Source: an uncultured delta proteobacterium
GTDB taxonomy: Bacteria > Desulfobacterota > Binatia > UBA9968
Assembly (NCBI GenBank): GCA_963760795.1
Contig: CAVXEP010000022.1
Coordinates: forward strand, 192,001 to 256,000
DNA: 64,000 bases
Direction: 5' to 3'
In this document: positions 16,331 through 43,789 of the stretch, piece by piece
Position numbering within the stretch: position 1 is the stretch's first letter
Layout of the letters: each line of letters starts with the position of its first letter
The notes under the pieces: generated by a model
What the model was told of the DNA's origin: nothing
The model's input: only the letters and a program-made list of their open reading frames with translations
The model's database searches: none
Made by a program: the position numbers and the translations under genes

Positions 16331-18055
16331 CTACGGTTGGACCTCGATGCTCAGCGCTTTCGACAATGAGACACCGAGGGCATCGGTCACTTCGAAAGTC
16401 AGGTTGGCAGTGCCGGCAGTGGTCGGCGTGCCGGTAATTTTTCCGGTCGCCGGAGCCATGGTTAGGCCCGCCGGCAGGGTGCCGGCCGTGATCGACCAGG
16501 TATGGGGAATTTTGCCAGACATGGCTGCTAAGTCGGCAAGATATCTTCGTCCAACTCGGCCCGTGGGTAGGCTATTCGTGGCGAATACCAGCGCCCGATA
16601 GATCCGCGATTGAAAGTCCTTGGTCGTCGATGCCCCACTCTGCTCCGTCACTTGCACGGAGAACGAATATTTTTTCATTTTGGTCGGAGTCCCGGTAATC
16701 GCATTGTTGACGATGGCGAGGCCGTCCGGCAGCGCACCGCTCAATAGTGTAACCGCATATGGCGCCGTGCCACCGGCAAGACTCAAGTCCAAATTGAATG
16801 GCACACCGAGTTCGCCGTCGGCCACCGACGATGCGCCAATTTCCACGACCCGATGAACGACATAAATCGCGCCATCGCTGATCGAAAGCACGTAGAGCAG
16901 TCCGTCCGGGCCGGTTCTCACGTCTGAGATGCTTCCGAAATCGGTGCCGAGCCGAACATCATTGCGCTCGTTGGCGCTGTCCGCCACTTTATCGCGCAAA
17001 TCTTCGAGGAGTGTAAAATCTATACCGTCGCGCCGTTTGTTCAGTTCAAACCTGGAGAGATTGCCAAACACATAGTCGCCAATAAAAAGGTTGTTTTCAT
17101 ACTCGGGGCCCAATTCCAGAGAATCGACAAACGCCATTCCCGTCAACCCGACGGACTCAAACCAGGAGAATTCGGGATCCGAATAACGCGACCGCGTCAG
17201 AGAAAACAAATCCGCCTCGTTTTCGCCTTCCAGGTCACGACTCATCGGCCCCTGAATCTTATTCCAGCCGCTGTTGAAACCCGGCGCGACGAGATTGATT
17301 TCATCCCAATTAGCCGGACCGTTCTCGGTGTTCCAGAGTTTCCCGCTTACCGGATCAAACGCCATGCCGAATGAATTGCGAATACCGTAGGCGAAATACT
17401 TCGCCACGACTCCGCCCTGAGAATAAAAAGGATTGTTCTTCGGCGCCGTGCCATCGTCATTGAGCCGGAGAATGACCGATGTATCGTTGGGCGCGGCGCC
17501 GCCGGAATTGTTTTGCAATTGCCCGGACAGCCCTTGATCGCCGACGGTGACATAAAGTTTGCCATCCGGGCCGAAAGCCATGACGCCGCTGTAGTTTCCC
17601 GAAGTAGCGGAAAACGGCAGACTCATAATCAGCAGCGGTGCGGTTAAGGCGCCGCTCGCGCTATCCCAGGTGTAGCGGTAGATGCGGTTCGCCACTGCCG
17701 AACCGAGAGTATCGTTGCCGCCGCTCCCTTCGGTGTAAAACAAGTACACATACTTGTTGGTCTGAAAATTCGGATGTATCGCAATACCGAGCAGCCCGCC
17801 GAACGACCGCGGGTCGACATCCACATCCAGCACCGGATTGGCCAGCAACGCACCGTTGAGGACACGGCGCACTTTACCGTCGTTTTTTTGCAATACCAGA
17901 ATGTCGTCCACGCCGATAAATGCCATGGACGATGGAATGTCCAAGGTATCGGCGACGAGACTTACGGTTAAATTCGGGTCAAGTATTGTCGGCTGCGCGT
18001 AGGCGGAAACGGCGTTGATACAAAGTGCAACCAGAGCATAGCAAAGCTTCCTCAT
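16331..18055 (-). CDS. Exported PQQ-dependent sugar dehydrogenase (GSDH) fold + two putative Ig (He_PIG) domains
   Basis: AFGPDGKLY, YGIRNSFG, ENGP..DEIN, PGFNSGW; C-terminal GGTAPY...GALPDGL...ITGTP x2; RBS GGAGG. Confidence 0.88.
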   Translation of the reverse strand: MRKLCYALVALCINAVSAYAQPTILDPNLTVSLVADTLDIPSSMAFIGVDDILVLQKNDGKVRRVLNGALLANPVLDVDVDPRSFGGLLGIAIHPNFQTNKYVYLFYTEGSGGNDTLGSAVANRIYRYTWDSASGALTAPLLIMSLPFSATSGNYSGVMAFGPDGKLYVTVGDQGLSGQLQNNSGGAAPNDTSVILRLNDDGTAPKNNPFYSQGGVVAKYFAYGIRNSFGMAFDPVSGKLWNTENGPANWDEINLVAPGFNSGWNKIQGPMSRDLEGENEADLFSLTRSRYSDPEFSWFESVGLTGMAFVDSLELGPEYENNLFIGDYVFGNLSRFELNKRRDGIDFTLLEDLRDKVADSANERNDVRLGTDFGSISDVRTGPDGLLYVLSISDGAIYVVHRVVEIGASSVADGELGVPFNLDLSLAGGTAPYAVTLLSGALPDGLAIVNNAITGTPTKMKKYSFSVQVTEQSGASTTKDFQSRIYRALVFATNSLPTGRVGRRYLADLAAMSGKIPHTWSITAGTLPAGLTMAPATGKITGTPTTAGTANLTFEVTDALGVSLSKALSIEVQP

Positions 18056-18085
18056 GATCAACCTCCTCGAAACGAACTAGGCCTG

Positions 18086-18101: not shown

Positions 18102-18402
18102 TTAATCGACGAGGAAACTTGGTGGAAATGCATTCCAGCCCATGCGAAGGATTACCGGAATGGCCTATCAAGACTAGATTGATGACATAAAGGCACAATT
18201 TATCATGTGACCTGCGATCAAATAGGCGTTTATGGAATTAACAAAACTGTCCGCTCGGGCATAATAACTGAAGAAATAGAATGGCAACTTCCACGATCAC
18301 CGCGCGTTGCAAGGAAGGGCCCGGACAACCGCCTGGGCTGCGTCAGCGGGCTCACTCAACGCCAGGCTTCGACAAAACAGACTCGGACGCCAGCGCGACG
18401 GA

Positions 18403-20104
18403 TCATTTCACTGTGAAGACAAACTCTTTCTGCGCCGTGCCGCCGAGGACATCGGTCACCCGAAAGGTAAGGTTTACGCTGGCCGCAACCAGTGGTGCGC
18501 CGGCGATCCTGCCGGTCACCGGGTCCAAGGCTAGTCCCGCCGGCAAGACACCGGAAACCAAGGACCAGGAATAAGCCTTTTTCCCGCCCCGTGGCGATAA
18601 GCGGCGCGGAGAATTTTCTACCAACGCGGCCAATCGGTAGTCGATTTGTCGCGATGGCGACGGCTGTCACGATTTTCAAGCGATAGCTTCTGCTCGCCGA
18701 CGCGCCGGCCGCGTCGTCAAACTTTAGGGTGAAGACAGACTGGCGTGCTTGGCTCGGAGTCCCAGTGATATTCGTACCGCCAACGGTGAGTCCCAAAGGC
18801 AAAGTGCCTCTAACAAGTGTAGCGACATAGGGCGGAGTACCTCCTGCGACAGCCAGGCCGCCATTATACGCAACGCCAACTTCACCGTCTGGCAGGGTCG
18901 CACTTCCCAGACTGAGACCGGGCTCGATGACATACACCGCACCGTCGCCTATCGAAACTACGTACAGCTTGCCATCGGGACCCAGTTTTATGTCTGTGAT
19001 ACCGCTAAACCCCATGCCGACGCGTACGGATTCCCGTTCCGCAACGCTGTCGGCGACGAGATCGGCGAGCCCGCCGCTCAGAGAAAAACCGTCACGAGAT
19101 TGATTGAGCGGGAGACGATAGAGATTGCCGTTATTCACATCGCCCACCAGTGCGCTGTTTTGATAATCGGCAGCGAACAATTGGGAATTCGGAAATGCGA
19201 TCGCGGTCACTCCCACCGGCGCCAACCAGGAAAACTCAGGATCGGCGTAGTGGGCGCCAGCGACGGCAAATAAATCCGCGACACTGTTGGCGTTGCGGCT
19301 ATCTGGCCCCATCAACTTGCGCCAACCGCTGTTGAACCCGGCTTCGACGATATTGACCTCGTCGTAACTGTCGGGGCCGTTTTCCGTATTCCACAGCTTT
19401 CCGGTCACCGGATCGAATGCCATGCCGAAAGAATTTCTGATGCCGTAGGCAAAATATTTCGCCAGATTACCGCCCTGGGCAAAGAACGGATTATCACTGG
19501 GCACCGTGCCGTCGTCGTTGAGGCGCAAGATAACCGAACTATCGTCGGGCGCGCCCGTGGCATTATTTTGCAGTTGGCCATTACGGTTGAGATCGCCGAT
19601 GACAATGTAAAGCTTGCCGTCTGGACCGAAGGCAATGACACCACCGTTATGGTTCGGCCCCGGGGAAATCGGCAGGTCAGCGATCAGCGTTCCAGGAGCC
19701 GCTAACGTGCTGCCATTCCAGCTGTAACGATAGACGCGATTGGCCGTACCATTACCGGAATCATCGCCCGAACTAGTCTCGCTGAAATAGAGATAAACAA
19801 AAGCCGTAACCGGGAAGTTTGGATGCAACGCGATTCCCAGCAAACCCCGCTCGGACTGCCCATCGACATTAAGGTCGAGGACCGCGGCGGATTGCAGCAC
19901 GCCCGCCGTAACCCGTCGGACTCTACCATCGTTCTTTTGTAAGACTAGAAAATCGTTTGCACCGATAAACGCCATCGTCGTCGGCTCGCTGAGCCCCGCG
20001 ACCACTTGGCGTACGCTGAGACCTGGATCGGTCAAAATCGGCGCGCCCCAGACAACTTCTGCGCTAAGAATCAGCGCAAATAAAAAAACCATAATCCGCT
20101 GCAT
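18403..20104 (-). CDS. Exported PQQ-dependent sugar dehydrogenase (GSDH) + two He_PIG domains (frameshift near 18590)
   Basis: ERGLLGIALHPNF, PNHNGG, YGIRNSFG, ENGPDSYDEVN; second Ig domain completed in ORF 18403-18633. Confidence 0.88.
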
Positions 20105-20158: not shown

Positions 20159-20423
20159 TAGCTTTCCCAGTCGATCGTTTTGTCCTGATTCTGATCGATC
20201 CCTGACAAACCCCGTCATACTTCCAGGTATCCCGAAGGAGCGGCGGCCAAACAAGGTCCGCCGGCTGCTGATCTTGTAGTTAGTCTATCCTGGATCGGCG
20301 ACGGCAAATTTGATAAGCAGCAAGACATCAGTTAATCGTCAGCTAGGTTTTGCCCATCCGCCCTAAAATAGCGGATGCAACTGCGGCGCGGCAATGATTT
20401 GCCGGAAAGAATATGAGGTAGTT

Positions 20424-21477
20424 ATGAACGGCCCAATCGCCAACGTCGAAGAACTCGATCGCCGCCTCGGTGAGAAATGGATCTCCGGCATCTGGCGTAT
20501 CCCCGCCGGTGCTCGTCCCGGCGATCCCAAGACCAAGGTAATACCGCACCTGTGGAAATGGGCCGACATCTACGACGGCCTGCTGCAAGCGCGCGATCAG
20601 ATCGCCGTCGAGCGCGGCGCCGCCGAACGGCGCACGCTCAGATTGGTCAATCCCGGCGTGCAAGACATCGAGATGACCACGCACACTTTGCTAATGTCAT
20701 TGCAGATGATTCAGCCCGGCGAAGTCGCGCCGCCACACCGCCACACCATGTCGGCGATCCGCTTCATCTTGCAGGGCAAGGGCGCTTACACCAACGTCGA
20801 CCAGCAAAAGATGGTAATGGAAGACGGCGATTTGATCCTCACGCCGTGCTGGGCCTGGCACGAGCATGCCCATGACGGCGCCGAGCCGATGGTCTGGATC
20901 GACGGCCTCGACGTGCCGTTCGTGCAGTCGTTGCAAGTGATCTCCTTCGAACCCTTCCCGGAAAAGCGCATGCCGTTGGCCGAACCGCGATATGACACCA
21001 GCGCCTACGGCATGGCCCGGCCGGTCACCGGCGATGAACCAGCGCCCACCGCGCCGCTGCACTACCGCTGGCGTGATATTTATCCGGCGCTGAAAAAGCT
21101 CTCCGAAGGCCCGGCCAATCCCTACGAAGGCTACGCCATGGAATATGTCAATCCGCTCACCGGCGGACCGACCCTGCCGACCATGTCCTGTTGGATACAG
21201 TTATTGAAACCCGGCCAGCGCACCCAAGCGCACCGCCATACCAGCACGGCGATCTACCACGCCTTCCGCGGCGAAGGCACGACGGTGATCGACGGTAAAC
21301 CATTCCACTGGCAAAAGGGCGACTGCTTCGTCGTGCCGCTTTGGCACTGGCATGAGCACGCCAACACCGTCGGCAAGCGACGATGCGATTCTCTTCTCGA
21401 TGAACGACGCGCCGGTGCTAAAACCGTTTGGCCTGTACCGCGAAGAAGGGCCGGGCAAATCTCAATTGGGGCTGTAG
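20424..21477 (+). CDS. Gentisate 1,2-dioxygenase-like bicupin (frameshift near 21376)
   Basis: PHLWKW, ERRTLRLVNPG, PGEVAPPHRH, WHEH, WIDGLDVP, YVNPLTGG, HRHT; corrected tail DDAILFSMNDAPVLKPFGLYRE. Confidence 0.88.
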
Positions 21478-21498
21478 CACTGGAATCCGCCTTTCGGT

Positions 21499-21720
21499 CT
21501 AGCGCGGAAGCACGTTGAAAGCCACGGCCATGCGAATCGAATAGTTGTGATGGCGATCGCCGTTGCGATCAGCAAAATGTCCTTGTCGCTGAGACCCGCA
21601 GCGCGCAGCTCTTCAACATCCTTCTTGCGCACCGCGGCTTCGCTGCGCGCGGATCTTTTTGTAGGCTTCTTTGAGTTCGCCCTTGCCTTCACCTTCCGGA
21701 ACGCCTTTGATCCACGGCAT
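21499..21720 (-). pseudogene. AhpD/carboxymuconolactone-decarboxylase (peroxidase-related) gene with internal deletion
   Basis: N-terminus MPWIKGVPEGEGKGELKEAYKKI joined out of frame to C-terminus DVEELRAAGLSDKDILLIA..HNYSIRMAVAFNV; central core absent. Confidence 0.6.
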
Positions 21721-32707: not shown

Positions 32708-33913
32708 TCATTTGTATAATTCGCTCGATCGCCGCTCATCGATCCACGACCTCTCGTCGACGATCGCGAGTGCATCCAAATCCGCCGCCACCGCACCGGG
32801 GTCGTCCACCCACTGCCGTAGCAACTCACCGCCATTGATCAGATCGATGGCTAGCCGGTTCTTTTCATATTCATACTCAAAGTCACGCCAAAGATCATAT
32901 TCCGGCTGCAACAAGCGCAGCGCCTTGAACGCCAGCGCCATCAACCGCCACGGCTTGAAAGCATTATGGTCGTAGCTCGGATCGTCGACGTGAATCTGGA
33001 TGCCGGCGCAGAGTTTACCGGCGTGTTTGTGGAAGGTCGGCTCGAACCAGCACTCGCGCAGGCGGCAACCGAGCAGCCAGTCGGGGGCGAATGCCTCCAT
33101 CTTTTTCAACAACGCGCGCGGCTCGATATCCGGCGCGCCGAAAAGTTCCAGTGGTCGCGTCGTGCCGCGCCCTTCCGACAGCGTCGTGCCTTCGAGCATG
33201 ACCGTGCCGGCGTAGCAGCGCGCCATCGATAAATTAGCTGCGTTGGGACTGGGATTGACCCAACTTCTTTTCCCCAGCGGCCAACCGTAACCTGGAGCTG
33301 CCGCCGGATTCCAGCCTGCCATCTTTACGACTTGATAATCGACATCGAGCTTTAGCGTGCTGATAAACCATCCGCCTAATTCACCGAGCGTCAGCCCATG
33401 GCGCATGGGCAATGGACCCGCGCCGACAAAACTCTCCCAACCAGGCCGAAGCCGCAATCCTTCCACCGGCCGTCCCACCGGATTGGGTCGGTCGAGAACC
33501 CAGACAGATTTATTGTGCTGCGCAGCGGCTTCGAGAGCATAGCGCAGCGTGGTGATGAAAGTATAAATGCGGCAACCCACATCCTGGAGATCCACCAGCA
33601 GCACATCGAAGCTAGCCATCATCGCCGCCGTCGGCCGGCGCACTCCGCCGTAGAGGCTGAAAACCGGAATGCCATGTACCGGATCGAGGAAATCCGCCGA
33701 CTCGACCATGTTGTCCTGCTTGTCGCCGCGCAGCCCATGCTGCGGCCCAAACGCCGCACTGAGCTTGATGTCCGGCAGCGCCGCCAACGCGTCAAGCGAA
33801 TGGACCAACTCGCGCGTCACCGACGCCGGATGCGCTAGCAACGCCACGCGCTTGCCTGCAAGCGGCTTGCGCAGCGCTGGTTCATGCAGCAGTCGGTCAA
33901 TGCCAAATTTCAT
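32708..33913 (-). CDS. DUF1343 / NamZ-like exo-beta-N-acetylmuramidase
   Basis: FGPQHG.RG, SLYG, DLQDVGCRIYTF, VLDRPNP, RHGLTLGEL, PSPN, SEGRGTTRP. Confidence 0.88.
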   Translation of the reverse strand: MKFGIDRLLHEPALRKPLAGKRVALLAHPASVTRELVHSLDALAALPDIKLSAAFGPQHGLRGDKQDNMVESADFLDPVHGIPVFSLYGGVRRPTAAMMASFDVLLVDLQDVGCRIYTFITTLRYALEAAAQHNKSVWVLDRPNPVGRPVEGLRLRPGWESFVGAGPLPMRHGLTLGELGGWFISTLKLDVDYQVVKMAGWNPAAAPGYGWPLGKRSWVNPSPNAANLSMARCYAGTVMLEGTTLSEGRGTTRPLELFGAPDIEPRALLKKMEAFAPDWLLGCRLRECWFEPTFHKHAGKLCAGIQIHVDDPSYDHNAFKPWRLMALAFKALRLLQPEYDLWRDFEYEYEKNRLAIDLINGGELLRQWVDDPGAVAADLDALAIVDERSWIDERRSSELYK

Positions 33914-33925
33914 TGTAAGTCTATT

Positions 33926-34507
33926 TTAAGCGCTCTGAATAGGAAGCGCGAGTTCTAGGGCGAAAGAATCGGCATGATGAAAGTCGGGTTTGCCCGCCGG
34001 ATGCCGCAACGCCCAATACGATAGCGTGCCATCGTTGCCTTCGATCACCGCGGTCAATCCGATCCGAAGCCTCGTTCCGGGGTGAATCAGGGCCAAGCGA
34101 TCTAATCGAATCGTTGTCGCAAGCGTCAGCCGATCGGCTATCTGCTCAACAGAAATATTAGGAGCGAACGCATCATTGTCGAGCGGCCAGCCGTCGCGAT
34201 ACGCTCGAAATTGATAAGCCGCCCATTCGCTCGACGGCGAGAAATTAAACTCGTAGTAGGCGGGACTGTCTTTGATACCGATAAACGCCTCAAAACAGGT
34301 GTGCTGCCACAGGCCATCGACGCGCTGTGATGTTGCGACGAGCGGGATGAGCAACTGATTAATGTCCGCTATCAAGGTATACGAGAAGGCCAGCGCACGG
34401 GATTCACTATTATCAACTCTCGCTTCAATCCCATGGATCAGTTGGCGTTGCGATGCCGGGCTCAAGATGAGCGCCGCGGCCGCTGAACTAAAGCGCGTCT
34501 CAGGCAT
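33926..34507 (-). CDS. DOMON-like domain protein
   Basis: DGLWQHTCFEAF, YYEFNFSPS.EWAAYQF, SYWALRHP.GKPDFH. Confidence 0.82.
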   Translation of the reverse strand: MPETRFSSAAAALILSPASQRQLIHGIEARVDNSESRALAFSYTLIADINQLLIPLVATSQRVDGLWQHTCFEAFIGIKDSPAYYEFNFSPSSEWAAYQFRAYRDGWPLDNDAFAPNISVEQIADRLTLATTIRLDRLALIHPGTRLRIGLTAVIEGNDGTLSYWALRHPAGKPDFHHADSFALELALPIQSA

Positions 34508-35071: not shown

Positions 35072-35794
35072 ATGGCTGTCACGGACTACAAAGGACCAGC
35101 ATTCGATTCCAGCGAGCTGAAAGAACTCAAAGCGAAAGTCGTCAATGGGTGCCTGATTCTTGACCGCGAAGGCATCACCGATGGCTTTGGCCATGTCAGC
35201 GTGCGGATTCCGCAACAGGCGGCATTTCTCACCATCGCCCAGGTCAGCCCCGGCTGCGCGGCCCTCGACAAACTGGTTCTGCTTGACCTCGACGGCGACT
35301 ATCTCGGCGGCGCCAAACCGGCGCCCTACGAGTGGCCGATTCATGCGTGCATCATGAGCGCGCGCCCGGATGTCATGAGCGTGTGCCACACTCACTCCAA
35401 ATGGAGCGCGCTGTTTAGCGTGCTAAAAAAAGGGCTCCGCCCGGCGCATATGTACGGCCGATTTCTTCCGGTTGGCGGCGCGCCCATCTATCCCAAAGCC
35501 GGCCTGATCACTTCCGTCGAGCGAGGCCAGGCGCTGGCCGACACATTGAAAGACGGCGCAGCCACTTTGTTGCGCGCTCACGGCGACGCCGTCGTCGGCG
35601 CCAGCGTCGAGCAAGCGATCCTGCGCACGGTGCAGCTCGCGTTTCTGGGCGAGCTGTCGCACTTGGCGGCGGTCCACGGCGGGCCAGACTACTTGACCGA
35701 AGAGGAGCTGGCGACTTTCGCCGGCGACCGGTCGTTTCCGGCGCGCCCATGGGAATATTTCTTGACCCGTTTGGGCGATCGGCGCGTTGCTTGA
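35072..35794 (+). CDS. Class II aldolase/adducin-fold protein, decarboxylase-like
   Basis: DGFGHVSVR, EWPIH, HTHS, LRAHG metal-binding set; RBS GAGGAG. Confidence 0.88.
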   Translation: MAVTDYKGPAFDSSELKELKAKVVNGCLILDREGITDGFGHVSVRIPQQAAFLTIAQVSPGCAALDKLVLLDLDGDYLGGAKPAPYEWPIHACIMSARPDVMSVCHTHSKWSALFSVLKKGLRPAHMYGRFLPVGGAPIYPKAGLITSVERGQALADTLKDGAATLLRAHGDAVVGASVEQAILRTVQLAFLGELSHLAAVHGGPDYLTEEELATFAGDRSFPARPWEYFLTRLGDRRVA

Positions 35795-35866
35795 CAGACA
35801 GATGACCGGCAACTATTGTCGCGACAATAAATTGATTCATCGCGCATTCAGTCTGAAGGAGCATGC

Positions 35867-36595
35867 ATGGCTGCCGGTCGCAAAGACATTCCCACCATCG
35901 ATTCTTCCGAGCTTAAGGAGCTCACCGACAAACTGATTACCGCCTGTCATATTCTCGACCATGAAGGCGTCACCGACGGCTACGGCCATGTCGGCGTACG
36001 CGTCCCCGGCGCGGAGGCGTTTATCACCATCGCCAATATCAGTCCTGGCGCGGTCACGCGCGACCGCTTGATCATGCAGGATTTTGCCGGCAACCATCTC
36101 GACGGCGCCACGACTCCGCCCAACGAATGGCCGATCCACGCCTGCATATTCAAAGCCCGGCCGGAAATTGTCAGCGTGGCGCATACCCATTCCAAATGGA
36201 GCACGATTTTCAGCGTGCTGCCGATCAAGCTCAAGCCGCTGCATCATTATGGCAAGTTTCTCTCCGCCGACGGCCCGCCGGTTTATCAAGGAGTCGGCCT
36301 AGTGCGCACCCTCGAACGGGGCGACGACTTGGCAGCCGCGTTGGGCAAAGGACCGGCGGTGTTGATGCGCGCCCACGGCGACGCCGTGGTCGGTGAAAGC
36401 ATCGAGCAGATGATCGAGCGCACCACCCGGCTGGCGATGTTGGGCGAGTGGAATCACTTGGCCCTGCTGCACGGCCAACCGAGATATCTCAGCGCTGAAG
36501 AGCTGGAAGTGTACAACGCCGACCAACGTTTTCCCTTGCGCGGCTGGGAATATTTCGTCGGCCGGCTGAGCCGAAACAAACGTGAGTTGGAGTGA
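35867..36595 (+). CDS. Class II aldolase/adducin-fold protein, decarboxylase-like (paralog)
   Basis: DGYGHVGVR, EWPIH, HTHS, MRAHG; clearly similar to the 35072 gene. Confidence 0.88.
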   Translation: MAAGRKDIPTIDSSELKELTDKLITACHILDHEGVTDGYGHVGVRVPGAEAFITIANISPGAVTRDRLIMQDFAGNHLDGATTPPNEWPIHACIFKARPEIVSVAHTHSKWSTIFSVLPIKLKPLHHYGKFLSADGPPVYQGVGLVRTLERGDDLAAALGKGPAVLMRAHGDAVVGESIEQMIERTTRLAMLGEWNHLALLHGQPRYLSAEELEVYNADQRFPLRGWEYFVGRLSRNKRELE

Positions 36596-36663
36596 TGGAA
36601 TGTTGGAGTGTTGGAGTACTGGGCCTCCCCTCACCCATGACTCCAGCACTCCATCACTCCAAT
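36587..36663. repeat. Inverted 8-mer tandem arrays (TGGAGTGN x4 / ACTCCANN x3)
   Basis: tggagtga tggaatgt tggagtgt tggagtac ... actccagc actccatc actccaat. Confidence 0.75.
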
Positions 36664-36699
36664 GACCCATAAACTTAACCGCTGAGGAGGACTTTCATC

Positions 36700-37386
36700 A
36701 TGGCCACATCCGCAGAATTTGTCGCAAAACTAAAAAAAGATATCCAGGCGTTTCCCAAGATTCGCATCAAGCATCCGTTCTTGAAAGCGGTCTGCGACGG
36801 CAGCGCCACTATGGAGCAAATTCGCGCCTGGGCGATTCAGGACTATCAATTTCGCGCCGCCGTGCCGCGCATCTGTATGCTGCGCTACCTCGCCTGCACC
36901 GATCCGGAGATCGCGCAAAAGCTCTGGGGCGTGGTCGAGGAAGAGATCCACGGCATGGACACCGGCAGTGCAGGTCACAATGAACTGGCGATCCGCTTCG
37001 CTAACGCCATCGGTCTCACGCAGCAGCAGCTGGAAAATGCCGTACTGCGCCCGTCCACCGCGGCGCATCTTTATTACGTCGAGCTGATCATTCACACACT
37101 GCCCTGGTTCGTCGTCATGTCGATCCAGATCGGCGCGGAAGGGACCTTCGGTCCGGCGGCGGCGGCGATCGGCAACGGCCTGCTGAAAAACTACAAGATG
37201 AATCCCGATGACGTTCGTTTCTTTACCGTCCATTCAGAAGCCGACGAAGATCACAGCAGCCTGGCCGAAGAGATCGCCGTGCGTTATCTCCACTCGCCCG
37301 CGCTCCAGGAGCAAACTTACAAAGCGACGTTTCGCCGCATGGAGCTGCTCTACGACATCTGGTCCATCGACGGCTACGATAAATAA
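36700..37386 (+). CDS. Heme-oxygenase-like diiron enzyme (CADD/PqqC/TenA-like)
   Basis: HPF, EEEIHG...GH, AE, FFTVHSEADEDH; RBS GAGGAGG. Confidence 0.85.
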   Translation: MATSAEFVAKLKKDIQAFPKIRIKHPFLKAVCDGSATMEQIRAWAIQDYQFRAAVPRICMLRYLACTDPEIAQKLWGVVEEEIHGMDTGSAGHNELAIRFANAIGLTQQQLENAVLRPSTAAHLYYVELIIHTLPWFVVMSIQIGAEGTFGPAAAAIGNGLLKNYKMNPDDVRFFTVHSEADEDHSSLAEEIAVRYLHSPALQEQTYKATFRRMELLYDIWSIDGYDK

Positions 37387-37425
37387 GCAAAAACCGGCGT
37401 GGCAATACCGAAACGGAGAAGAATT

Positions 37426-37561
37426 TTCACCACAAAGGGCACAAGGGTACAAAGTAGGGGCCGGTCGTGACCGGCCCAGCTCGGAATCGGATCATTAACC
37501 GCAGAGAACGCAAAGGGCGCAAAGTTCGGACATCTTTGTAGGGGCGTATGGCATACGCCCT
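37426..37561. repeat. Composite repeat: two 9-mer CAAAG tandem arms each followed by a GTAG REP
   Basis: ttcaccacaaagggcacaagggtacaaa + GTAGGGGCCGGTCGTGACCGGCCC (37454-37477); taaccgcagagaacgcaaagggcgcaaag + GTAGGGGCGTATGGCATACGCCCT (37538-37561). Confidence 0.72.
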
Positions 37562-37631
37562 GCGGTGGCGGCATGGCGCTTGCCCGGCAACAAAAATTAC
37601 CCAGCCGACGTAGATTCTAAAAATAATTAAA

Positions 37632-38642
37632 ATGGAACAACTCACCTTAGGATTCATTTCCGCCTTTAACGAACGGGTCGAACCGCTGATGAACGGCACG
37701 ATCGAAGTTGAGGGAGTCGAATTGATTCCCACTTACTCTCATCCGGCCGAGACATTTTGGCGCCAGCTCAAGTTCGGCGAATTCGAAGTGGCGGAGATGT
37801 CGATGTCGTCATTTCTGATCGCCCGCTCACAGGGCGCCGACATGATCGCGCTGCCGGCTTTTCCGAGCCGCCGCTTGTTTCAAACCGAGCTGTCCTACCA
37901 TGTCGATTCCGGCATCGCAAAACCGCAAGACCTCGTGGGCAAACGTTTGGGCGTGGCGGAATATCAGCAAACCGCGGCGTTGTGGTTGCGCGGCATTCTC
38001 GAACACGACTTCGGCGTGTCGCAGTACCAGATTCACTGGTACATGGAGCGGAGCGAGGAGATGAGCCACGGTGGCGCCACCGGTTTCAAACCGCCGCCGG
38101 GAATATCGTTTCAGCGCATCGCCGGCAACAAGAGCCTGGCCTCGACAATTCTCGCCAACGAACTGGACGTCGCCCATGTCTCGAGCCCCTGGGTGCTGCA
38201 AGCCAACACGCTGGACCGCTCGAGCCGCATCACCGGCAAGGGCGATTGGAGCCAAATCAAACCGCTCTTTCCCGACCGCATGGCGGAAGGCGCGCGCTTC
38301 TACCGGCAGCATGGGTTTCTACCGGTCAATCACGCCTACATCATCCGCGGCGACATTCACCGCAAACATCCCTGGCTCGCCGGCAAATTATATGACGGCT
38401 TCGTCCGCGCCAAAGCCTACGCCCAAGATAGACTAGCGGCACAGATTCCGACGGCGCTGATCTTCGGCCAGGAATATCTCGCCACCACCCGCGAGCTGAT
38501 CGGCGACGACCCGTTTCCTTTCGGTATCGCCGCCAATCGCGCCATGCTCGACACCATTACCAGCTACTCCCACGAACAAGGCTTGACGCCGCGCCAGATG
38601 AAAGTCGAAGAACTCTTCGCCGAGAGCACGCTCGACACGTAA
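37632..38642 (+). CDS. 4,5-dihydroxyphthalate decarboxylase-like protein (SBP fold, no signal peptide)
   Basis: PL.NG.I.VEG, ETFWRQL..EFEVAEMSMSS, P.FPSR, DL.GKR.GV.EYQQTA..W.RGIL, G..PVNH, DPFPFGI.AN, YSHEQGL. Confidence 0.82.
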   Translation: MEQLTLGFISAFNERVEPLMNGTIEVEGVELIPTYSHPAETFWRQLKFGEFEVAEMSMSSFLIARSQGADMIALPAFPSRRLFQTELSYHVDSGIAKPQDLVGKRLGVAEYQQTAALWLRGILEHDFGVSQYQIHWYMERSEEMSHGGATGFKPPPGISFQRIAGNKSLASTILANELDVAHVSSPWVLQANTLDRSSRITGKGDWSQIKPLFPDRMAEGARFYRQHGFLPVNHAYIIRGDIHRKHPWLAGKLYDGFVRAKAYAQDRLAAQIPTALIFGQEYLATTRELIGDDPFPFGIAANRAMLDTITSYSHEQGLTPRQMKVEELFAESTLDT

Positions 38643-38678
38643 TTAAGCCCGAACGGTGTTTCAGCCGGGAGGGAAATC

Positions 38679-39707
38679 ATGAAACTGAAGAGCCGCGTCG
38701 CCGTCATCGCTGTCAGCGCCGCAATGTCAGCGGCGATTTTTGCCGTCGAGTTCGCCAGTTCGCAAGCGAACCCCGATCCGCGCTTGATCGAAGGAGCAAA
38801 AAAAGAAGGCGAAGTCATTTTCTACACCACCATGACCCTGGATCAAAGCAAGGAGGTCGTGGATCGCTTTCAGAAAAAATATCCGTTTATCAAGCCGACT
38901 CTGTTTCGCACCGGCGGCGGCCCGCTGCTCAATAAAATTCTCAACGAGGCGCGCGCCGGCCGTCACGCCTGGGATGTCGTCGCCGGCCGAGCCGAGATGT
39001 ATGTGCCGCTGATGGAGAGAAAACTATTGGCTTCCTATCGCTCGCCGGAAGCCAAGGCGATCGACGAAGATCTGGTCGACAAGGAAGGCTACTGGACGGC
39101 TTACTATGTCGTCACCTACGTCTTGGGATGGCATACCAAGCTGGTCAAGCGCGAAGATGTGCCGAAGACCTACGAGGCCCTGGTCGAGTCAAAATGGAAA
39201 GGCCAGCTGTCCTTCGATAACGAGGCGTACGGCATGCTGCAAGGGCTGATGCGCGCCTGGGGACGGGAAAAAGCCATCGCCTATTTTCGCCGCATCGCGG
39301 CCATCAATCCCGCCATGATGCGCGGCAACTCGGAAAGAGTCGCACTGGCGGCGGCGGGTGAGTATCCGCTAATCGTCGCCTACAATCAGACCTTGGAACG
39401 CATGGTTGCCAGACGCGCGCCCCTCGACTGGTTGCCCTTGGAGCCGGCGGTGGTCAGCGCCTTTCCGATCATGATCGCGGCCAAGGCGCCCAATCCCAAC
39501 GCCGCCCGGCTCTACTATGATTTCAGCCTGTCAAAAGAGGGACAAGAGATGATGCGCGGCATGCAGCGTATTCCGGTGCGCAAAGATGTCGAACCCCATC
39601 CGCCGCGGCTATTTCGCGGCTACAAACGCGTGGTGGAAAACCCCGAGGATTACAAAGACTTCGAAGGACTGGTAAAAACCTACAATGACATTTTCAAGCT
39701 TCGTTAA
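38679..39707 (+). CDS. Extracellular solute-binding protein (Fe3+/thiamine/polyamine cluster)
   Basis: Signal peptide, GAKKEGEV.FY, FQKKYPFI, PKTYE.L, APNPNAARL. Confidence 0.85.
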   Translation: MKLKSRVAVIAVSAAMSAAIFAVEFASSQANPDPRLIEGAKKEGEVIFYTTMTLDQSKEVVDRFQKKYPFIKPTLFRTGGGPLLNKILNEARAGRHAWDVVAGRAEMYVPLMERKLLASYRSPEAKAIDEDLVDKEGYWTAYYVVTYVLGWHTKLVKREDVPKTYEALVESKWKGQLSFDNEAYGMLQGLMRAWGREKAIAYFRRIAAINPAMMRGNSERVALAAAGEYPLIVAYNQTLERMVARRAPLDWLPLEPAVVSAFPIMIAAKAPNPNAARLYYDFSLSKEGQEMMRGMQRIPVRKDVEPHPPRLFRGYKRVVENPEDYKDFEGLVKTYNDIFKLR

Positions 39708-39741
39708 GCAAGTCCCGACGAAGTAACCAGCAGGAGAGGTA

Positions 39742-40756
39742 ATGGCGAAGTTACGGTTAAACTTTATTTCCGCATTCAACGAACGGGTCGAGCCGCTGAT
39801 GCAAGGCATCGTTCAAGCGGAAGCGATCGAGATCGTGCCGACCTATTCGCATCCATCGGAGACCTTCTTGCGCCAGCTGCGGGATATGGAGTTCCCAGTC
39901 GGCGAGATGTCGATGTCGTCCTATCTGATCGCCCGCGAGCGCGGCCTCGATATGATCGCGCTGCCGGTGTTTCCCAGCCGCCGGCTGTTTCACACCGAGC
40001 TTTCCTACCACACCGACTCCGGAATCAAGAAGCCCGAAGATATCATCGGCAAACGCATCGGCGTCAGCGAGTATCAGCAAACCGCGGCGCTCTGGCAGCG
40101 CGGCATCCTCGACCACGACTTCGGCGTGTCGCAGTACAAAGTCCACTGGTACATGGAGCGCACCGAGGCCATGAGCCATGGCGGCGTGACCGGCTTCACT
40201 CCGCCGGAAGGGAATTTCGTTCCAGCGGGTGCCGCCGGACAAGAGCCTCGCGTCGATGCTGGTGAATAAGGAATTGGACGTGGCGGCGATCAACAGTCCC
40301 TGGAAAAACGCGCCGAGCCAGCTCGGCCGCTCGCACCAGATCACCGGCGCAGACGGCGACTGGAGCAAAGTGAAGCTGCTCTTTCCCGACCGCGTTGCCG
40401 AAGGCAAACGGTTTTTCGATAAGTGGGGATTTCTCCCGGTGAACCATGCCTACACGATTCGCGGCGATATCTATCGAAAACACCCGTGGGTCGCTTTCAA
40501 CTTGTACAGCGCCTTTGTCAAAGCCAAGGAACACTTCAACGCCAAGTTGGTCGATAGCATTCCGTCCGGGCTTTTCTTCGGCAAAGAATATTTGACCAAG
40601 ACCCAAGAGATATTCGGCAACGATCCCTTCCCCTACGGGGTCAAAGCCAATCGAAAGTTGCTGGAAACGCTCATCGACTTCTCGCACGAACAAGGACTGA
40701 TAACGAAAAGGCCCAAGATCGAAGAGCTATTCGCCGCGAGCACGCTAGATTTGTGA
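39742..40756 (+). CDS. 4,5-dihydroxyphthalate decarboxylase-like protein (frameshift near 40212)
   Basis: Close paralog of 37632; EMSMSSY, FPSRR, EYQQTA, PVNH, HEQGL across ORFs 39742 and 40229. Confidence 0.82.
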
Positions 40757-40850
40757 CGCTTAAAGCGATGCGGTTGTCGAGGAATGGGCCGACAACTCGT
40801 CGGTCGAACGGTTCCAGCGCGAGCGAATCGTTGAAGGACTAAGTTAAAAC

Positions 40851-41825
40851 ATGAAAAGAGATATTCTCATCCCGCTCTTGATCGCCGTTGCCATGCTGGC
40901 CTTTGCCAGCGCCAATCATGCAGCGTCGTTAAAATCGGTCAACTTCGCGTCGAACACACCGACGTTGAGTGGCACGTTGCCGCTGGTCGTCGCCCAGGAG
41001 TTTGGTTTCTTCGCCGCCGAAGGTTTGGACGTCAAAACCGTGCTGATTCGCGGCGGACCGACGGCCATGGCGGCTCTGGTAGGCGGCGGCGTCGATTACA
41101 CGCTGGTGGCCGGCGTGGCAGCGGTACGGGCGATCGCGCAAAACGCGCCGATGACGATCATCAGCGGCCTTCAACCTTACATGGACTACACGTTGCTCGG
41201 CGCCAAAGGCGTCACCGGCGTCAACGACCTCAAGGGCAAAGTCGTCGGCGTCACCGGTCCGGGCGGCATCGCCGAGTTCGCCACGGTGGAAGGGCTGGCC
41301 AAGAAAGGGCTGGTGCGCGACCGGGATTATAAAGTCCTTTATGGCGTCGGCAACAGTCCGGCGCGCGCTCAAGCTTTAGAAACCGGCAAGATTCACGCCT
41401 CGCCATTTTCTTTCTTAGAAAGATTGGAACTGGAACGGAAAGGCTATCCCACTCTTTTCGATATCGGCAGCGTCATGCCGGGATTTCCTTTCGTAGTGAT
41501 CGTTACCAGTAAACAAAAAATCGAGACCGATCCCGAAGGAATCGTTTCAATGCTGCGCGCGATCAAGCGCGGCTTGGACTTCCTCGCCGGCAACCATGAA
41601 AAAGTCGCCGCCGTGGTGATTAAGAAGAACAACTTCGGCGACCCGGCCACGGTGCGCAAAGTCATCGCGCAGTTTGCCGAGGTCTATTCGGTGGCGATCA
41701 CCAAAGACGACATCGAAGCGCTGATCGCCGCCACGCGCATCGAAGCGGAAGCGAAAAAGCTCGGCGGATCGGAAAAATTCTTTACCCGGCAATTTCTCAC
41801 CAAGGCTCTCGGCCAAAGCCGTTGA
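40851..41825 (+). CDS. NMT1/THI5-like substrate-binding protein
   Basis: Signal peptide, GFFAAEGLDV, DLKGKVVGV. Confidence 0.88.
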   Translation: MKRDILIPLLIAVAMLAFASANHAASLKSVNFASNTPTLSGTLPLVVAQEFGFFAAEGLDVKTVLIRGGPTAMAALVGGGVDYTLVAGVAAVRAIAQNAPMTIISGLQPYMDYTLLGAKGVTGVNDLKGKVVGVTGPGGIAEFATVEGLAKKGLVRDRDYKVLYGVGNSPARAQALETGKIHASPFSFLERLELERKGYPTLFDIGSVMPGFPFVVIVTSKQKIETDPEGIVSMLRAIKRGLDFLAGNHEKVAAVVIKKNNFGDPATVRKVIAQFAEVYSVAITKDDIEALIAATRIEAEAKKLGGSEKFFTRQFLTKALGQSR

Positions 41826-41836
41826 AAGGAACCATC

Positions 41837-42790
41837 ATGGCAAAAAACATCGAACTGAGTCTTCTCCTCGCCGACTACCACCGCACGCGGCCCATGTTGA
41901 ACGGCGAGATCAAAGCACCGGGTGTTGAATTCACGCTGCACCGCGCCGAGACCGGCGTCGCCTGCATGCGGCCGGTCTACGAAGAATACGACATCGCCGA
42001 GATGTCTCTGTCATGGTACGTCATGGCGCGCAGCCGCAACGAGCCGGTCGTCGCCCTGCCGATCTTTCCGTTGCGCATGCAGATCCACCCATATATTTTT
42101 TGCTCGCCGGCCTCCGGCATCGAACGCCCGGAGGACTTGAAGGGCAAAAAGATCGGCATGGACCAATACCGCTTGACCGTCGGTCTGTGGGCGCGCGGCA
42201 TCCTGCAAGAACATTACGGCGTGCGGCCGGAAGATTGCCATTGGTTTACCAACGAACCCGAGTCGCCGGACGCCGGCTTTCAACTGCCGGCGAATGTCGA
42301 GCTCACCTGCGCCCAGGAGTCCACCGAAGCGATGCTTTTGCGCGGCGAGCTCGACGCCCTGATCCCGCCCAACATAGTGCCGTCGTTTCGCAACCAAGAC
42401 CCGCGCATTCGCCGCGTCTTCAAAGACATTCGCGTCACCGTCAATGATTATTTTCGTCACACCCGAATCTTCCCGATCACTCACACGCTGGTGGTGCGCG
42501 AGGAGTTGTTCGAAAAACAGCCTTGGCTGGTAGCCAGCCTGCTCGAAGCCTTCAATGAAGCTGAAGAACTTTGCCGCAAGTCCTACGCCTATGCCAAGCG
42601 CTCGGCATTTCCGTCGGCGGTGCTGATCTTGGAAGAAGAGGAAGAAGTTTTCGGCAAGAATCCCTGGCAGCACGGCTTAACGCCCGAGAACCAAGTGGTG
42701 CTGGAAAAATTCGTGCAATACGCCAACGAGCAGGGCTACATTCCGAACCGTCCGGCGCTAAGCGAGCTGTTCGCGCCGGTCGGCAACTAG
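41837..42790 (+). CDS. 4,5-dihydroxyphthalate decarboxylase-like protein (divergent third copy)
   Basis: DYHRTRP, EYDIAEMSLS, PIFPLR, DLKGKKIG..Y..T...WARGIL, IFPITH, EQG. Confidence 0.82.
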   Translation: MAKNIELSLLLADYHRTRPMLNGEIKAPGVEFTLHRAETGVACMRPVYEEYDIAEMSLSWYVMARSRNEPVVALPIFPLRMQIHPYIFCSPASGIERPEDLKGKKIGMDQYRLTVGLWARGILQEHYGVRPEDCHWFTNEPESPDAGFQLPANVELTCAQESTEAMLLRGELDALIPPNIVPSFRNQDPRIRRVFKDIRVTVNDYFRHTRIFPITHTLVVREELFEKQPWLVASLLEAFNEAEELCRKSYAYAKRSAFPSAVLILEEEEEVFGKNPWQHGLTPENQVVLEKFVQYANEQGYIPNRPALSELFAPVGN

Positions 42791-42796
42791 TTTCGA

Positions 42797-43789
42797 TTAC
42801 TTCGCGGGATACAAGCCAGCGAAGAAACCGCTCTGCTCCAGGCCGCGCACGATGGAGCCGTCGATCTGATCGTCCACCGACAGCGGCCGCAGCTGCGGTT
42901 CGCTTTTCTCCAGGAAGGTTTTGATCAGCGCGATGCCCGCTCGGTTCGGATACGGCACGCGCGGGACATAATTGAGATAGGTTCGTTGGGTTTCTTCCTG
43001 TACCAGCACGTCGTCGATCTTTAACCGGTCCTTAATGATCTTCTTGGAATAAGCCGCATCATTCTTAAAAACCGCGATCGCCTCGCCCATGGCGCGGACA
43101 AAGTTGCGCGCGACTTCAGAATTTTGCCGCAGGAACAACTTACGCGTCACCACACCGGCTGATTGATAGTCTGGAATGACATCGGCGAGATCGACCAGCT
43201 CACGAAACCCTTCCTGCTTGGCCACCGCCAACGTCGGCAGAGAAATCGGCCCGCCGAAGATCTTCTTGCTCTGCATGCCGGAAAGAATCGGCGGCACCCC
43301 GCCCATCTGAATGATCGGCACATCGGTTTCCGGCCGAAGCCCCCATTTATCGAGCGCAAGGCGCAGCAGCGCATCGGTGGTGGAACCGAAGCGCGTCACG
43401 CCCATCGCCTTGCCCTTGAGATCCTTGGGCTCACGAATCTCCGGCCGCACGATGATCGAAAACGGCGGCTTGGTCACCAGACCGACAATCATCACGGCAT
43501 CGCTCCCCTGCGCATTGACCCGCATCACCGGCTCGATTCCTTGAATGCCAAGCTGCGTGGTCCCGCCGAGCAGCGACTGCATCGCCGGCGAACCGGCGAC
43601 GTAAATCAATTCAACGTCGAGATCATATTTGGCAAAAATCCCTTTATCGACGGCGATCCAGGGGATCACCGCTGAGCCGGAGATCGAGCTATAGGCGACG
43701 CGGAGCTGGGTCGGCGCCTTGCTCGCCGCAAGCAGCGGCGATGAGAAGAGAACTGCGACAAGTGAGCTGACAAGTCCAAGTAAGGACAT
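42797..43789 (-). CDS. NMT1/THI5-like substrate-binding protein
   Basis: Signal peptide from ATG 43789, GIFAKYDLDVEL, DLKGK.MGVTRFGS, tail EQSGFFAGLY. Confidence 0.88.
   Translation of the reverse strand: MSLLGLVSSLVAVLFSSPLLAASKAPTQLRVAYSSISGSAVIPWIAVDKGIFAKYDLDVELIYVAGSPAMQSLLGGTTQLGIQGIEPVMRVNAQGSDAVMIVGLVTKPPFSIIVRPEIREPKDLKGKAMGVTRFGSTTDALLRLALDKWGLRPETDVPIIQMGGVPPILSGMQSKKIFGGPISLPTLAVAKQEGFRELVDLADVIPDYQSAGVVTRKLFLRQNSEVARNFVRAMGEAIAVFKNDAAYSKKIIKDRLKIDDVLVQEETQRTYLNYVPRVPYPNRAGIALIKTFLEKSEPQLRPLSVDDQIDGSIVRGLEQSGFFAGLYPAK

Follow-up and report, generated by a model that had tools for sequence, protein, structure and literature searches.

We describe a candidate catabolic gene module in a 64,000-nucleotide stretch of contig CAVXEP010000022.1 (C22 in our numbering; C22:192001-256000, referred to here as the window) from the genome of an uncultured delta proteobacterium (G000; 6.58 Mb in 35 contigs, 89% complete, 6% contamination). 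Eight co-oriented genes occupy positions 35072-42790 of the + strand, and three of them, AldB, HDO and DcA, form a core that is syntenic in dozens of related genomes, a grouping that exceeds chance. AldB is a class II aldolase-fold protein, HDO a heme-oxygenase-like dimetal protein and DcA a homolog of 4,5-dihydroxyphthalate decarboxylase with the fold of a solute-binding protein (SBP). We judge the chances to be about even that this triad is the basis of an uncharacterised module for the uptake, decarboxylation and O2-dependent oxidation of a hydroxylated (hetero)aromatic carboxylate that serves in catabolism.

The features of the region are as follows.

35072..35794, + strand: AldA, class II aldolase-fold protein of 240 aa, an accessory paralog of AldB (Aldolase_II, E 1.1e-28)
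35867..36595, + strand: AldB, class II aldolase-fold putative metal-dependent aromatic-acid decarboxylase of 242 aa, core (Aldolase_II, E 5.6e-29)
36700..37386, + strand: HDO, heme-oxygenase-like dimetal protein, core (Haem_oxygenas_2, E 3.3e-18; TENA_THI-4 also matched in Pfam)
37387..37631, no strand: variable spacer between HDO and DcA with short dispersed repeats, outside the functional module
37632..38642, + strand: DcA, cytoplasmic SBP-fold 4,5-dihydroxyphthalate decarboxylase homolog of 336 aa, core (PDB 9jp7, E 2.7e-47)
38679..39707, + strand: SBP1, secreted FbpA/AfuA-type solute-binding protein of 342 aa, accessory (SBP_bac_6/8 in Pfam)
39742..40756, + strand: DcB, second DcA-like decarboxylase homolog, a split gene (open reading frames 39742-40269 and 40229-40756)
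40851..41825, + strand: SBP2, secreted NMT1/SsuA-type solute-binding protein of 324 aa, accessory, travelling with DcC (NMT1, E 2.6e-21)
41822..42790, + strand: DcC, divergent 4,5-dihydroxyphthalate decarboxylase homolog of 322 aa (PDB 9jp7, E 6.1e-49)
42883..42900, + strand: terminator-like hairpin after DcC from a consensus scan, weak evidence for an operon end

The genes are separated by gaps of 34-104 bp, apart from one 4-nt overlap, in which the start of DcC overlaps the stop of SBP2, and one 245-bp spacer. An initial annotation, made from the sequence alone, had listed these eight genes as two aldolase-fold proteins, one HDO, three decarboxylase homologs and two exported SBPs; all eight are present and the Pfam and PDB matches agree with the assignments, but a frameshift in DcB had gone unnoticed. 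The same annotation had stated that the cluster lacks a Rieske system, and this holds: no Rieske domain was found among the 55 open reading frames (ORFs) of the window that were scanned with Pfam, and none of the 53 Rieske matches in the genome lies on C22.

To define the conserved part of the locus, we scanned one genome per species for HDO, which yielded 79 loci, mostly from metagenome-assembled genomes (MAGs) titled Candidatus Binatia, 'delta proteobacterium' or Syntrophobacter-like. The window proteins were placed on these loci by tblastn, and all counts refer only to loci with enough flanking DNA. In the main synteny set, which comprises 53 loci with an HDO at least 73% identical to that of the window, 46 of 49 have AldB no more than 1.5 kb upstream of HDO, and in 47 of 48 the start of a DcA-like gene, on either strand, is found at most 1.5 kb downstream of it. 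The other genes are found less frequently: AldA in 19 of 47 related loci, two or more DcA-like genes in 19 of 30, SBP2 in 18 of 30, DcC in 17 of 30 and SBP1 in 6 of 30, with all eight genes together in 4 of 29 (L004, L005, L006 and L051). The conserved unit is the triad AldB-HDO-DcA, and the other genes are lineage-specific decoration. The initial annotation had named a complete lack of synteny in relatives as an outcome that would speak against a shared pathway; because part of the gene set is strongly syntenic, this outcome did not occur, although conservation extends to the triad and not to the eight-gene set as a whole.

The AldB-HDO pair reaches further than the triad. It is kept down to an HDO identity of 66-74%, into MAGs labelled as other phyla and with wholly different flanks (L046, L047, L048, L050 and L060); in L046 the pair is followed by two Amidohydro_2 genes in place of DcA. 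Uptake genes of the tripartite ATP-independent periplasmic (TRAP), tripartite tricarboxylate (TTT) or ATP-binding cassette (ABC) type adjoin the module in L034, L047 and L050. In a MAG labelled Chloroflexota (L060:7952-12028), a gene for a LacI-family regulator stands between AldB and HDO and an NMT1 SBP gene follows; this is the only regulator inside the module among the annotated loci.

A sister clade of HDO, at 61-68% identity, contributed 26 loci and has a different context, as AldB is kept in four of them and DcA in one. Instead, the large subunit of a CoxL-like molybdenum hydroxylase follows HDO in 21 of the 26 loci, and in 19 of those 21 a UbiD-family decarboxylase follows the molybdenum subunit. 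The order in L052-L074, where HDO is 61-66% identical, is a Peripla_BP_6 SBP ABC system on the other strand, HDO, the molybdenum subunit and UbiD (for example L072:9983-14789 and L057:9887-14605). The UbiD protein resembles VdcC ('non-oxidative hydroxyarylic acid decarboxylase'). For the molybdenum subunit the nearest family is CoxL group 5, although its score stays under that cut-off, and no genes for iron-sulfur or FAD subunits were seen beside it in the annotated sister loci. The decarboxylase partners of the HDO lineage belong to four unrelated folds, namely aldolase-II, SBP-fold, Amidohydro_2 and UbiD. The recurrence of the linkage with four unrelated folds makes the strongest case for a functional connection between HDO and decarboxylases and for hydroxy-aromatic decarboxylation as part of the pathway.

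The AlphaFold2 model of HDO is all-helical (predicted local distance difference test, 89.5) and has the seven-helix heme-oxygenase-like fold. Foldseek placed CtCADD first (template modelling scores of 0.84/0.89), followed by PqqC (0.82), TenA, UndA and BesC, and by both sequence and fold the nearest solved relatives are the CADD/NePabS para-aminobenzoate (pABA) synthases (PDB 1rcw, 8va9 and 9pj4). Residues E80, E82, H93, E147, H178, D182 and H185 are invariant in 68 orthologs and likewise in a 22-sequence set, and the CADD motif of the third core helix has its counterpart in H178-x3-D182-x2-H185. HDO conserves a predicted three-histidine, three-carboxylate dimetal ligand set, with either E80 or E82 as one of the ligands, and it shares this pattern with CADD and NePabS; such a set has been described for most HDOs (PMC13108848, in the portion of the article that was available).

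What separates HDO from CADD and NePabS are the two residues that these enzymes sacrifice, a tyrosine and a lysine (roles as given in the accessible part of PMC11965152). The column of the sacrificial tyrosine (CtCADD Tyr27, NePabS Tyr25) holds Leu28 in HDO, with leucine in 44 and valine in 24 of the 68 sequences, and the column of the lysine (Lys152/Lys159) holds Ile157 in the alignment to 9pj4, with leucine in 46, isoleucine in 21 and methionine in one. Because both residues are replaced by aliphatic ones, we rejected a self-sacrificing pABA synthase as the identity of HDO, which presumably acts on a free substrate. The HDO scores 70.1 bits against the CADD model TIGR04305 (cut-off 200), and its context consists of decarboxylases and SBPs, not of folate genes. 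PqqC, which binds an aromatic tricarboxylate, resembles HDO in fold, and annotations of the Joint Genome Institute name HDO orthologs PqqC. The score against the PqqC model TIGR02111 is 39.6 bits with a cut-off of 240, and no pqq genes were found among the neighbours of HDO in the Pfam-scanned ORFs of the window. HDO moreover keeps the metal ligand set, whereas PqqC is metal-independent (PMC13108848, same portion).

Six arginines (R22, R42, R52, R57, R62 and R213) are also invariant in the 68 HDO sequences, and one might speculate that they would suit an anionic substrate. The clade is isolated: among 1.84 billion representatives, 399 proteins matched at E 1e-3 and 20 at E 1e-30, and among full-length relatives the identity falls from 65% straight to 35%. 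A look-up of HDO in the Protein Atlas returned only generic 'iron-containing redox enzyme / TenA' clusters.

AldA and AldB are 55% identical to each other, and for both the closest PDB match is 2z7b (Mlr6791; AldA, E 5.6e-17; AldB, E 6.1e-19 over residues 18-234), which we take to be HMPDdc, the decarboxylase of a vitamin B6 pathway. The alignment of AldB to 2z7b pairs the H-x-H, the third histidine and the glutamate of the metal site, and E87, H106, H108 and H170 of AldB are invariant in 19 sequences. We rejected a sugar-phosphate aldolase or epimerase identity for AldA and AldB, because in the alignment to FucA the P-S-S-E motif, whose serines we assume to be the phosphate binders, has become P-P-N-E, and G-N-V has become G-H-V, the latter as in 2z7b; a grouping with sugar-phosphate aldolases, which the initial annotation had named as evidence against its proposal, was therefore not seen. 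AldB thus has the Aldolase_II domain, the histidine triad with glutamate and the loss of the phosphate-binding serines in common with HMPDdc and PhtC, and the G-H-(V/I) motif in common with HMPDdc, but neither AldA nor AldB adjoins vitamin B6 or phthalate pathway genes. The best NCBIfam match of both proteins is PhtC (NF053537), and because their scores of 85.9 (AldA) and 76.9 bits (AldB) lie well under the cut-off of 200, they are not PhtC equivalogs. NovR and TqaM, presumably oxygenases of the class II aldolase fold, were also among the PDB matches, so the chemistry of AldA and AldB is not certain. A prediction of an AldB-HDO complex scored 0.00 in both runs, a value that says nothing for or against binding. 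We have no observation in favour of the heteromeric decarboxylases that the initial annotation had thought possible, and most relatives do without AldA.

DcA matches 4,5-dihydroxyphthalate decarboxylase over its full length (residues 4-336 against 24-346 of PDB 9jp7), and so does DcC, even though DcA and DcC are only 28% identical to each other. The N-termini of DcA and DcC, read directly, carry no signal sequence, which marks them as cytoplasmic, unlike transport SBPs of the same fold, whereas those of SBP1 and SBP2 are basic and hydrophobic with an A-x-A type signal sequence (judged by eye, without a prediction program). To our knowledge, the non-oxidative decarboxylation of a hydroxy-aromatic acid is the sole activity known for the 4,5-dihydroxyphthalate decarboxylase family. 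DcA, DcB and DcC resemble this enzyme (EC 4.1.1.55; Pht5/OphC; 9jp7) in the full-length cytoplasmic SBP-like fold and in long conserved motifs; they differ in being distant in sequence, in copy number, with three in the cluster and about 33 genome-wide, and in their context, which has HDO and aldolase-fold partners instead of an adjacent phthalate 4,5-dioxygenase (Rieske) or cis-dihydrodiol dehydrogenase. A literature search found no paper on the 9jp7 structure. The best PDB match of SBP1 is the iron ABC SBP 7f6p (E 1e-16), with the pyridoxal-5-phosphate-binding P5PA (6wce) at E 7e-12; SBP2 matches 3qsl (E 7e-12) and THI5 (E 1e-8).

We also analysed how the families of the module are distributed over the whole genome, which holds about 33 Dc-family genes (37 tblastn pieces), 16 Aldolase_II genes, 8-11 HDO genes and about 126 SBP1-like (SBP_bac_6/8-type) tblastn hits. 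NMT1 (PF09084) has at least 150 matches, as all 150 candidates that were scored, out of 461 from a first look, matched, and about ten NMT1 SBP genes lie within the window. Because these families are so strongly expanded, the SBPs and extra paralogs of the cluster carry little weight, and the five decarboxylases counted by the initial annotation, although present as homologs, partly reflect a genome-wide expansion of paralogs. With 53 Rieske, 8 LigB-type dioxygenase and 3 intradiol dioxygenase hits, the genome is that of a generalist degrader of aromatic compounds.

The closest paralog of DcA in the genome (64% identical) and the closest SBP2-DcC pair (46% and 56% identical) both lie on contig C13 between Rieske/LigXa-like oxygenases. 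The Dc family in this organism normally travels with Rieske oxygenases, and the module of the window is a variant with HDO and an aldolase-fold protein instead, which fits HDO holding the position of the oxygenase. The module shares the logic of oxygenation and decarboxylation with classical Rieske dioxygenase-dehydrogenase-decarboxylase pathways, including the clusters on C13 and C1 that contain paralogs of DcA, SBP2 and DcC; it differs from classical aerobic aromatic-acid pathways in that HDO is its sole candidate for O2 activation and that two unrelated decarboxylase folds are kept together. The initial annotation had described these two decarboxylase families as alternatives that sit beside Rieske dioxygenases in characterised phthalate pathways, but given the 53 Rieske hits and the position of the DcA and SBP2-DcC paralogs, that division is not strict in this organism.

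Several further associations were found outside the window. On C8, a paralogous HDO adjoins a member of the Dc family, and a UbiD gene lies at a distance of about 1.4 kb; on C1 and C29, Ald genes are found next to Dc genes. In a placement test, an Ald or HDO gene was no more than 5 kb away from 9 of the 37 Dc pieces, whereas 300 random trials gave 1.5 such pieces on average and 6 at most; four of the nine belong to the cluster of the window itself. Three other regions (L093, C13:181000-192000; L094, C13:257000-269000; L090, C1:24000-36000) combine Rieske/LigXa-like and Dc genes with NMT1 SBPs, UbiD, a bicupin or Aldolase_II and give the impression of related aromatic-acid modules that form a family within a single genome.

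For the module we infer decarboxylase activities, an order of steps, an HDO reaction and a substrate as follows. A hydroxylated aromatic or N-heteroaromatic carboxylic acid, the substrate class being perhaps hydroxylated aromatic or heteroaromatic polycarboxylates, would be taken up from soil. By analogy with PhtC and HMPDdc, AldB would be a metal-dependent enzyme that removes a carboxyl group in the ortho position to a ring hydroxyl; by analogy with 4,5-dihydroxyphthalate decarboxylase, the SBP-fold DcA would remove one in the para position to a hydroxyl. Both decarboxylations would be non-oxidative. With its predicted three-histidine, three-carboxylate dimetal cofactor bound, HDO would activate O2 and oxidise the decarboxylated or still carboxylated ring, in a step that could be a hydroxylation, an oxidative decarboxylation or a C-C cleavage, and it would occupy the place of the Rieske or ring-cleaving dioxygenase of classical pathways. 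The lineage-specific accessories of this strain, AldA (a tandem copy), DcB, the SBP2-DcC pair and SBP1, may widen the substrate range or provide uptake. A more specific proposal, to which we give a chance well short of even, is that HDO serves a lineage-specific pathway as the enzyme that hydroxylates, oxidatively decarboxylates or opens the ring, where it replaces Rieske/extradiol dioxygenases and works with whichever hydroxyarylic-acid decarboxylase fold the lineage supplies; plausible substrates would be hydroxylated polycarboxylates of benzene or pyridine that stem from humic or pyrogenic carbon in soil.

A number of observations weigh against a catabolic module of this kind. We know of no assayed member in the HDO clade, nor among the close relatives of AldB or DcA. 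The cluster contains no regulator or membrane transporter among the Pfam-scanned window ORFs, which also yielded no BPD_transp_1 permease, and no ring-cleavage or downstream genes were seen conserved beside the triad in the annotated related loci. The families are expanded to such an extent that the accessory genes may be chance neighbours. In the L030-L043 group DcA is on the opposite strand, so it is not always co-transcribed. At 76.9 bits AldB remains far under the PhtC cut-off of 200, and DcA and DcC are distant from the sole characterised enzyme of the Dc family, as is evident from the alignment of DcC to 9jp7. Finally, about a dozen HDOs have been validated, all of which act on fatty-acid or amino-acid substrates in biosynthesis, so that a catabolic HDO for aromatic compounds would be without precedent (PMC13108848, as far as its available text goes).

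We also weighed explanations other than the catabolic module. One is that the genes share no pathway and that massively expanded families became neighbours by chance, with their order inherited from a recent ancestor. The numbers of paralogs (about 33 Dc and 16 Aldolase_II genes, with about 126 hits for SBP1 and at least 150 for NMT1), the synteny of the unrelated upstream NamZ gene in 22 of 40 loci and the full set of eight genes in only 4 of 29 loci would be expected in that case. It does not account for the persistence of the AldB-HDO pair at 66-74% HDO identity amid wholly different flanks, for a triad whose AldB and DcA persist in 46 of 49 and 47 of 48 loci despite variable flanks, or for the 9 of 37 Dc pieces near Ald or HDO genes against a random mean of 1.5 and maximum of 6 (with the four pieces of the focal cluster included), and we regard chance as quite improbable. 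Biosynthesis or salvage is unlikely too, though less so: here HDO would produce or salvage an aromatic compound, either a cofactor or a metabolite (such as an aminobenzoate, hydroxybenzoate or quinone precursor), and the decarboxylases would trim a precursor. Such a role would agree with pABA synthases and PqqC as nearest solved relatives, with an HDO that is 80-98% identical across one family of genomes, with the UbiD-family neighbour of the sister HDO, as quinone biosynthesis also employs this family, and with the biosynthetic role of all validated HDOs (PMC13108848, within the part available). It is disfavoured by the replacement of the sacrificial tyrosine and lysine in all 68 sequences, by the low scores of HDO (70.1 against 200 for CADD; 39.6 against 240 for PqqC) and by the neighbours in the annotated loci, which are secreted SBPs and uptake systems with no other biosynthetic genes nearby. 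The distribution of HDO, which is confined to one order (76 of 94 other genomes in three families and 0 of 306 elsewhere), would also be oddly patchy for an essential cofactor.

Two other explanations keep the catabolic module but name a known pathway. As a sub-case of the proposed route, the substrate could be a pyridine ring of the vitamin B6/pyridoxate or pyridine-dicarboxylate type, with AldA or AldB as 3-hydroxy-2-methylpyridine-4,5-dicarboxylate decarboxylase and HDO in place of the flavin ring-opening oxygenase. HMPDdc (Mlr6791) is the closest solved relative of both aldolase-fold proteins, SBP1 matches the pyridoxal-5-phosphate-binding P5PA (E 7e-12), SBP2 and the Dc fold resemble THI5, a protein that binds pyridoxal 5'-phosphate, and the sister HDO clade adjoins a molybdenum hydroxylase, a class typical of N-heterocycle hydroxylation. 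The similarity of AldB to HMPDdc is distant, though (E 6e-19), the molybdenum subunit has CoxL group 5 as its nearest family, at a score below the cut-off, SBP1 is present in only 6 of 30 loci and has iron-binding SBPs as its top matches, and genes for pyridoxal/pyridoxate dehydrogenase, MHPC oxygenase and acetamidomethylene-succinate hydrolase were not seen in the cluster by the Pfam scan, which together leave the pyridine route a slim chance. An ordinary phthalate pathway, in which the Dc proteins are true 4,5- and the Ald proteins true 3,4-dihydroxyphthalate decarboxylases while the dioxygenase and dehydrogenase are encoded elsewhere, seems to us very improbable. The full-length homology to 9jp7, the PhtC model as best NCBIfam match of AldA and AldB and the 53 Rieske hits elsewhere in the genome are in line with it; against this, the PhtC scores are 85.9 and 76.9 instead of 200, about 33 Dc paralogs cannot all be phthalate-specific, the window has no phthalate dioxygenase or dihydrodiol dehydrogenase, and the known pathway offers no role for the conserved HDO (PMC13040137, as described in its accessible sections).

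The frameshift in DcB is caused by one extra A at 40208/40209, which gives two overlapping ORFs, and both halves align to DcA. Soil-DNA contigs from three runs of three studies are all one base short at 40208, at every depth recorded there, and related strains therefore carry an intact DcB. Split ORFs also occur elsewhere in the assembly, in Dc paralogs (C18:126061-127007, C4:199312-200296 and C29:82899-83850) and in a PEP-mutase/isocitrate-lyase-family gene (L091:8538-9400) that is likewise divided into adjacent or overlapping ORFs, which suggests that indel errors are frequent and that ORF-based gene calls need care. Because other genes of the assembly are split alike, an assembly indel error is the likeliest cause of the DcB frameshift, and with intact soil contigs as well we judged a true pseudogene to be unlikely. 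The contigs that span DcB show a divergence of a few percent from the window and represent other strains, so the frameshift might still be a real, recent mutation.

The spacer between HDO and DcA contains a repeat at 37499-37523 with about 27 copies in the genome and a palindromic repeat at 37537-37571 with about 12, and it looks like an intergenic element similar to a repetitive extragenic palindrome (REP) or a miniature inverted-repeat transposable element (MITE). Positions 37537/37571 are exact breakpoints of many soil contigs, and one contig joins 37386 to 37631, skipping the whole spacer. In contigs of runs X2 and X6 (window positions 37698-39904), the 5' part of DcA is joined to the matching part of DcB with the omission of approximately 2.1-2.2 kb including SBP1; these contigs derive either from strains with a single DcA/DcB hybrid and no SBP1, which would agree with the presence of SBP1 in only 6 of 30 related loci, or from assembly chimeras between the paralogs. 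Both the DcA-DcB junctions and the contig without the spacer fit a locus that recombines between its paralogs.

Promoter and terminator scans of the window gave counts close to the shuffled expectation and nothing usable except the hairpin 3' of DcC, which is without significance by itself since the terminator consensus was found at 18 sites compared to 10.7 expected. Upstream of the module, NamZ (an exo-beta-N-acetylmuramidase) and an adjacent 193-aa protein without a Pfam match are encoded at 32708-34507 on the - strand and keep their place beside the module in 22 of 40 related loci; divergent from the module, they look like an unrelated cell-wall recycling unit. A bicupin at 20394-21518 (+ strand) resembles 5-aminosalicylate and gentisate 1,2-dioxygenases (305 and 269 bits, both below the cut-off) and is a possible ring-cleavage enzyme 14 kb upstream of the module, with which it has no synteny. 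At 16331-18061 and 18356-20104 (- strand) lie tandem genes for GSDH-type (glucose/sorbosone dehydrogenase) proteins, each with C-terminal He_PIG Ig-like domains.

We determined the distribution of HDO in a class-level sample of 401 genomes including G000, with E 1e-60 or better as a match. In total, 77 genomes matched, among them G728, which is flagged as unpublished and on which the tally depends to this degree. With G000 left out, HDO was found in 48 of 63 genomes of family f1, 26 of 27 of f112 and 2 of 4 of f113, and in none of the 306 genomes of other families of the class. These three families belong to one order, so that the HDO clade is found in a single order of an uncultured class (NCBI label Candidatus Binatia). 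A phylum-level sample of 400 other genomes gave no match, but it is spread over a large phylum and hence uninformative. A tblastn search with HDO against 72,556 plasmids gave no match at E 1e-8, and there is thus no context on a cultured catabolic plasmid. Several studies have soil DNA runs with near-identical locus sequence, and a soil metatranscriptome library (X15) yielded contigs that lie on HDO, SBP1 and DcB; because DNA can occur in such libraries, these contigs are not proof of transcription and are a weak hint that the locus is expressed.

Our full-text literature search found no paper that pairs an HDO with class II aldolases or with catabolic decarboxylase gene clusters. Should the genes be a mere neighbourhood of paralogs, the lesson would be that groupings in genomes with hundreds of SBP-fold genes need synteny before they are read as pathways. 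Should the catabolic module be real, an HDO tied to aromatic-acid decarboxylases would represent a new functional class of the HDO superfamily, and the triad would provide a concrete three-protein target for function finding; because the two partner folds each have few known chemistries, the substrate panel can be narrow. In one data set, uncultured Dehalococcoidia express homologs of 4,5-dihydroxyphthalate decarboxylase while lacking a canonical phthalate dioxygenase, and an unknown oxygenating enzyme has been proposed for them (PMC13200403, in the part of the article available); although these bacteria are a different lineage, the module would offer a candidate type for that enzyme. It would also caution against labelling K04102-type homologs as 'phthalate degradation'. 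For the organisms themselves, it would suggest that an abundant uncultured lineage possesses a pathway for carboxyl-rich aromatic matter and may take part through it in the cycling of soil carbon.

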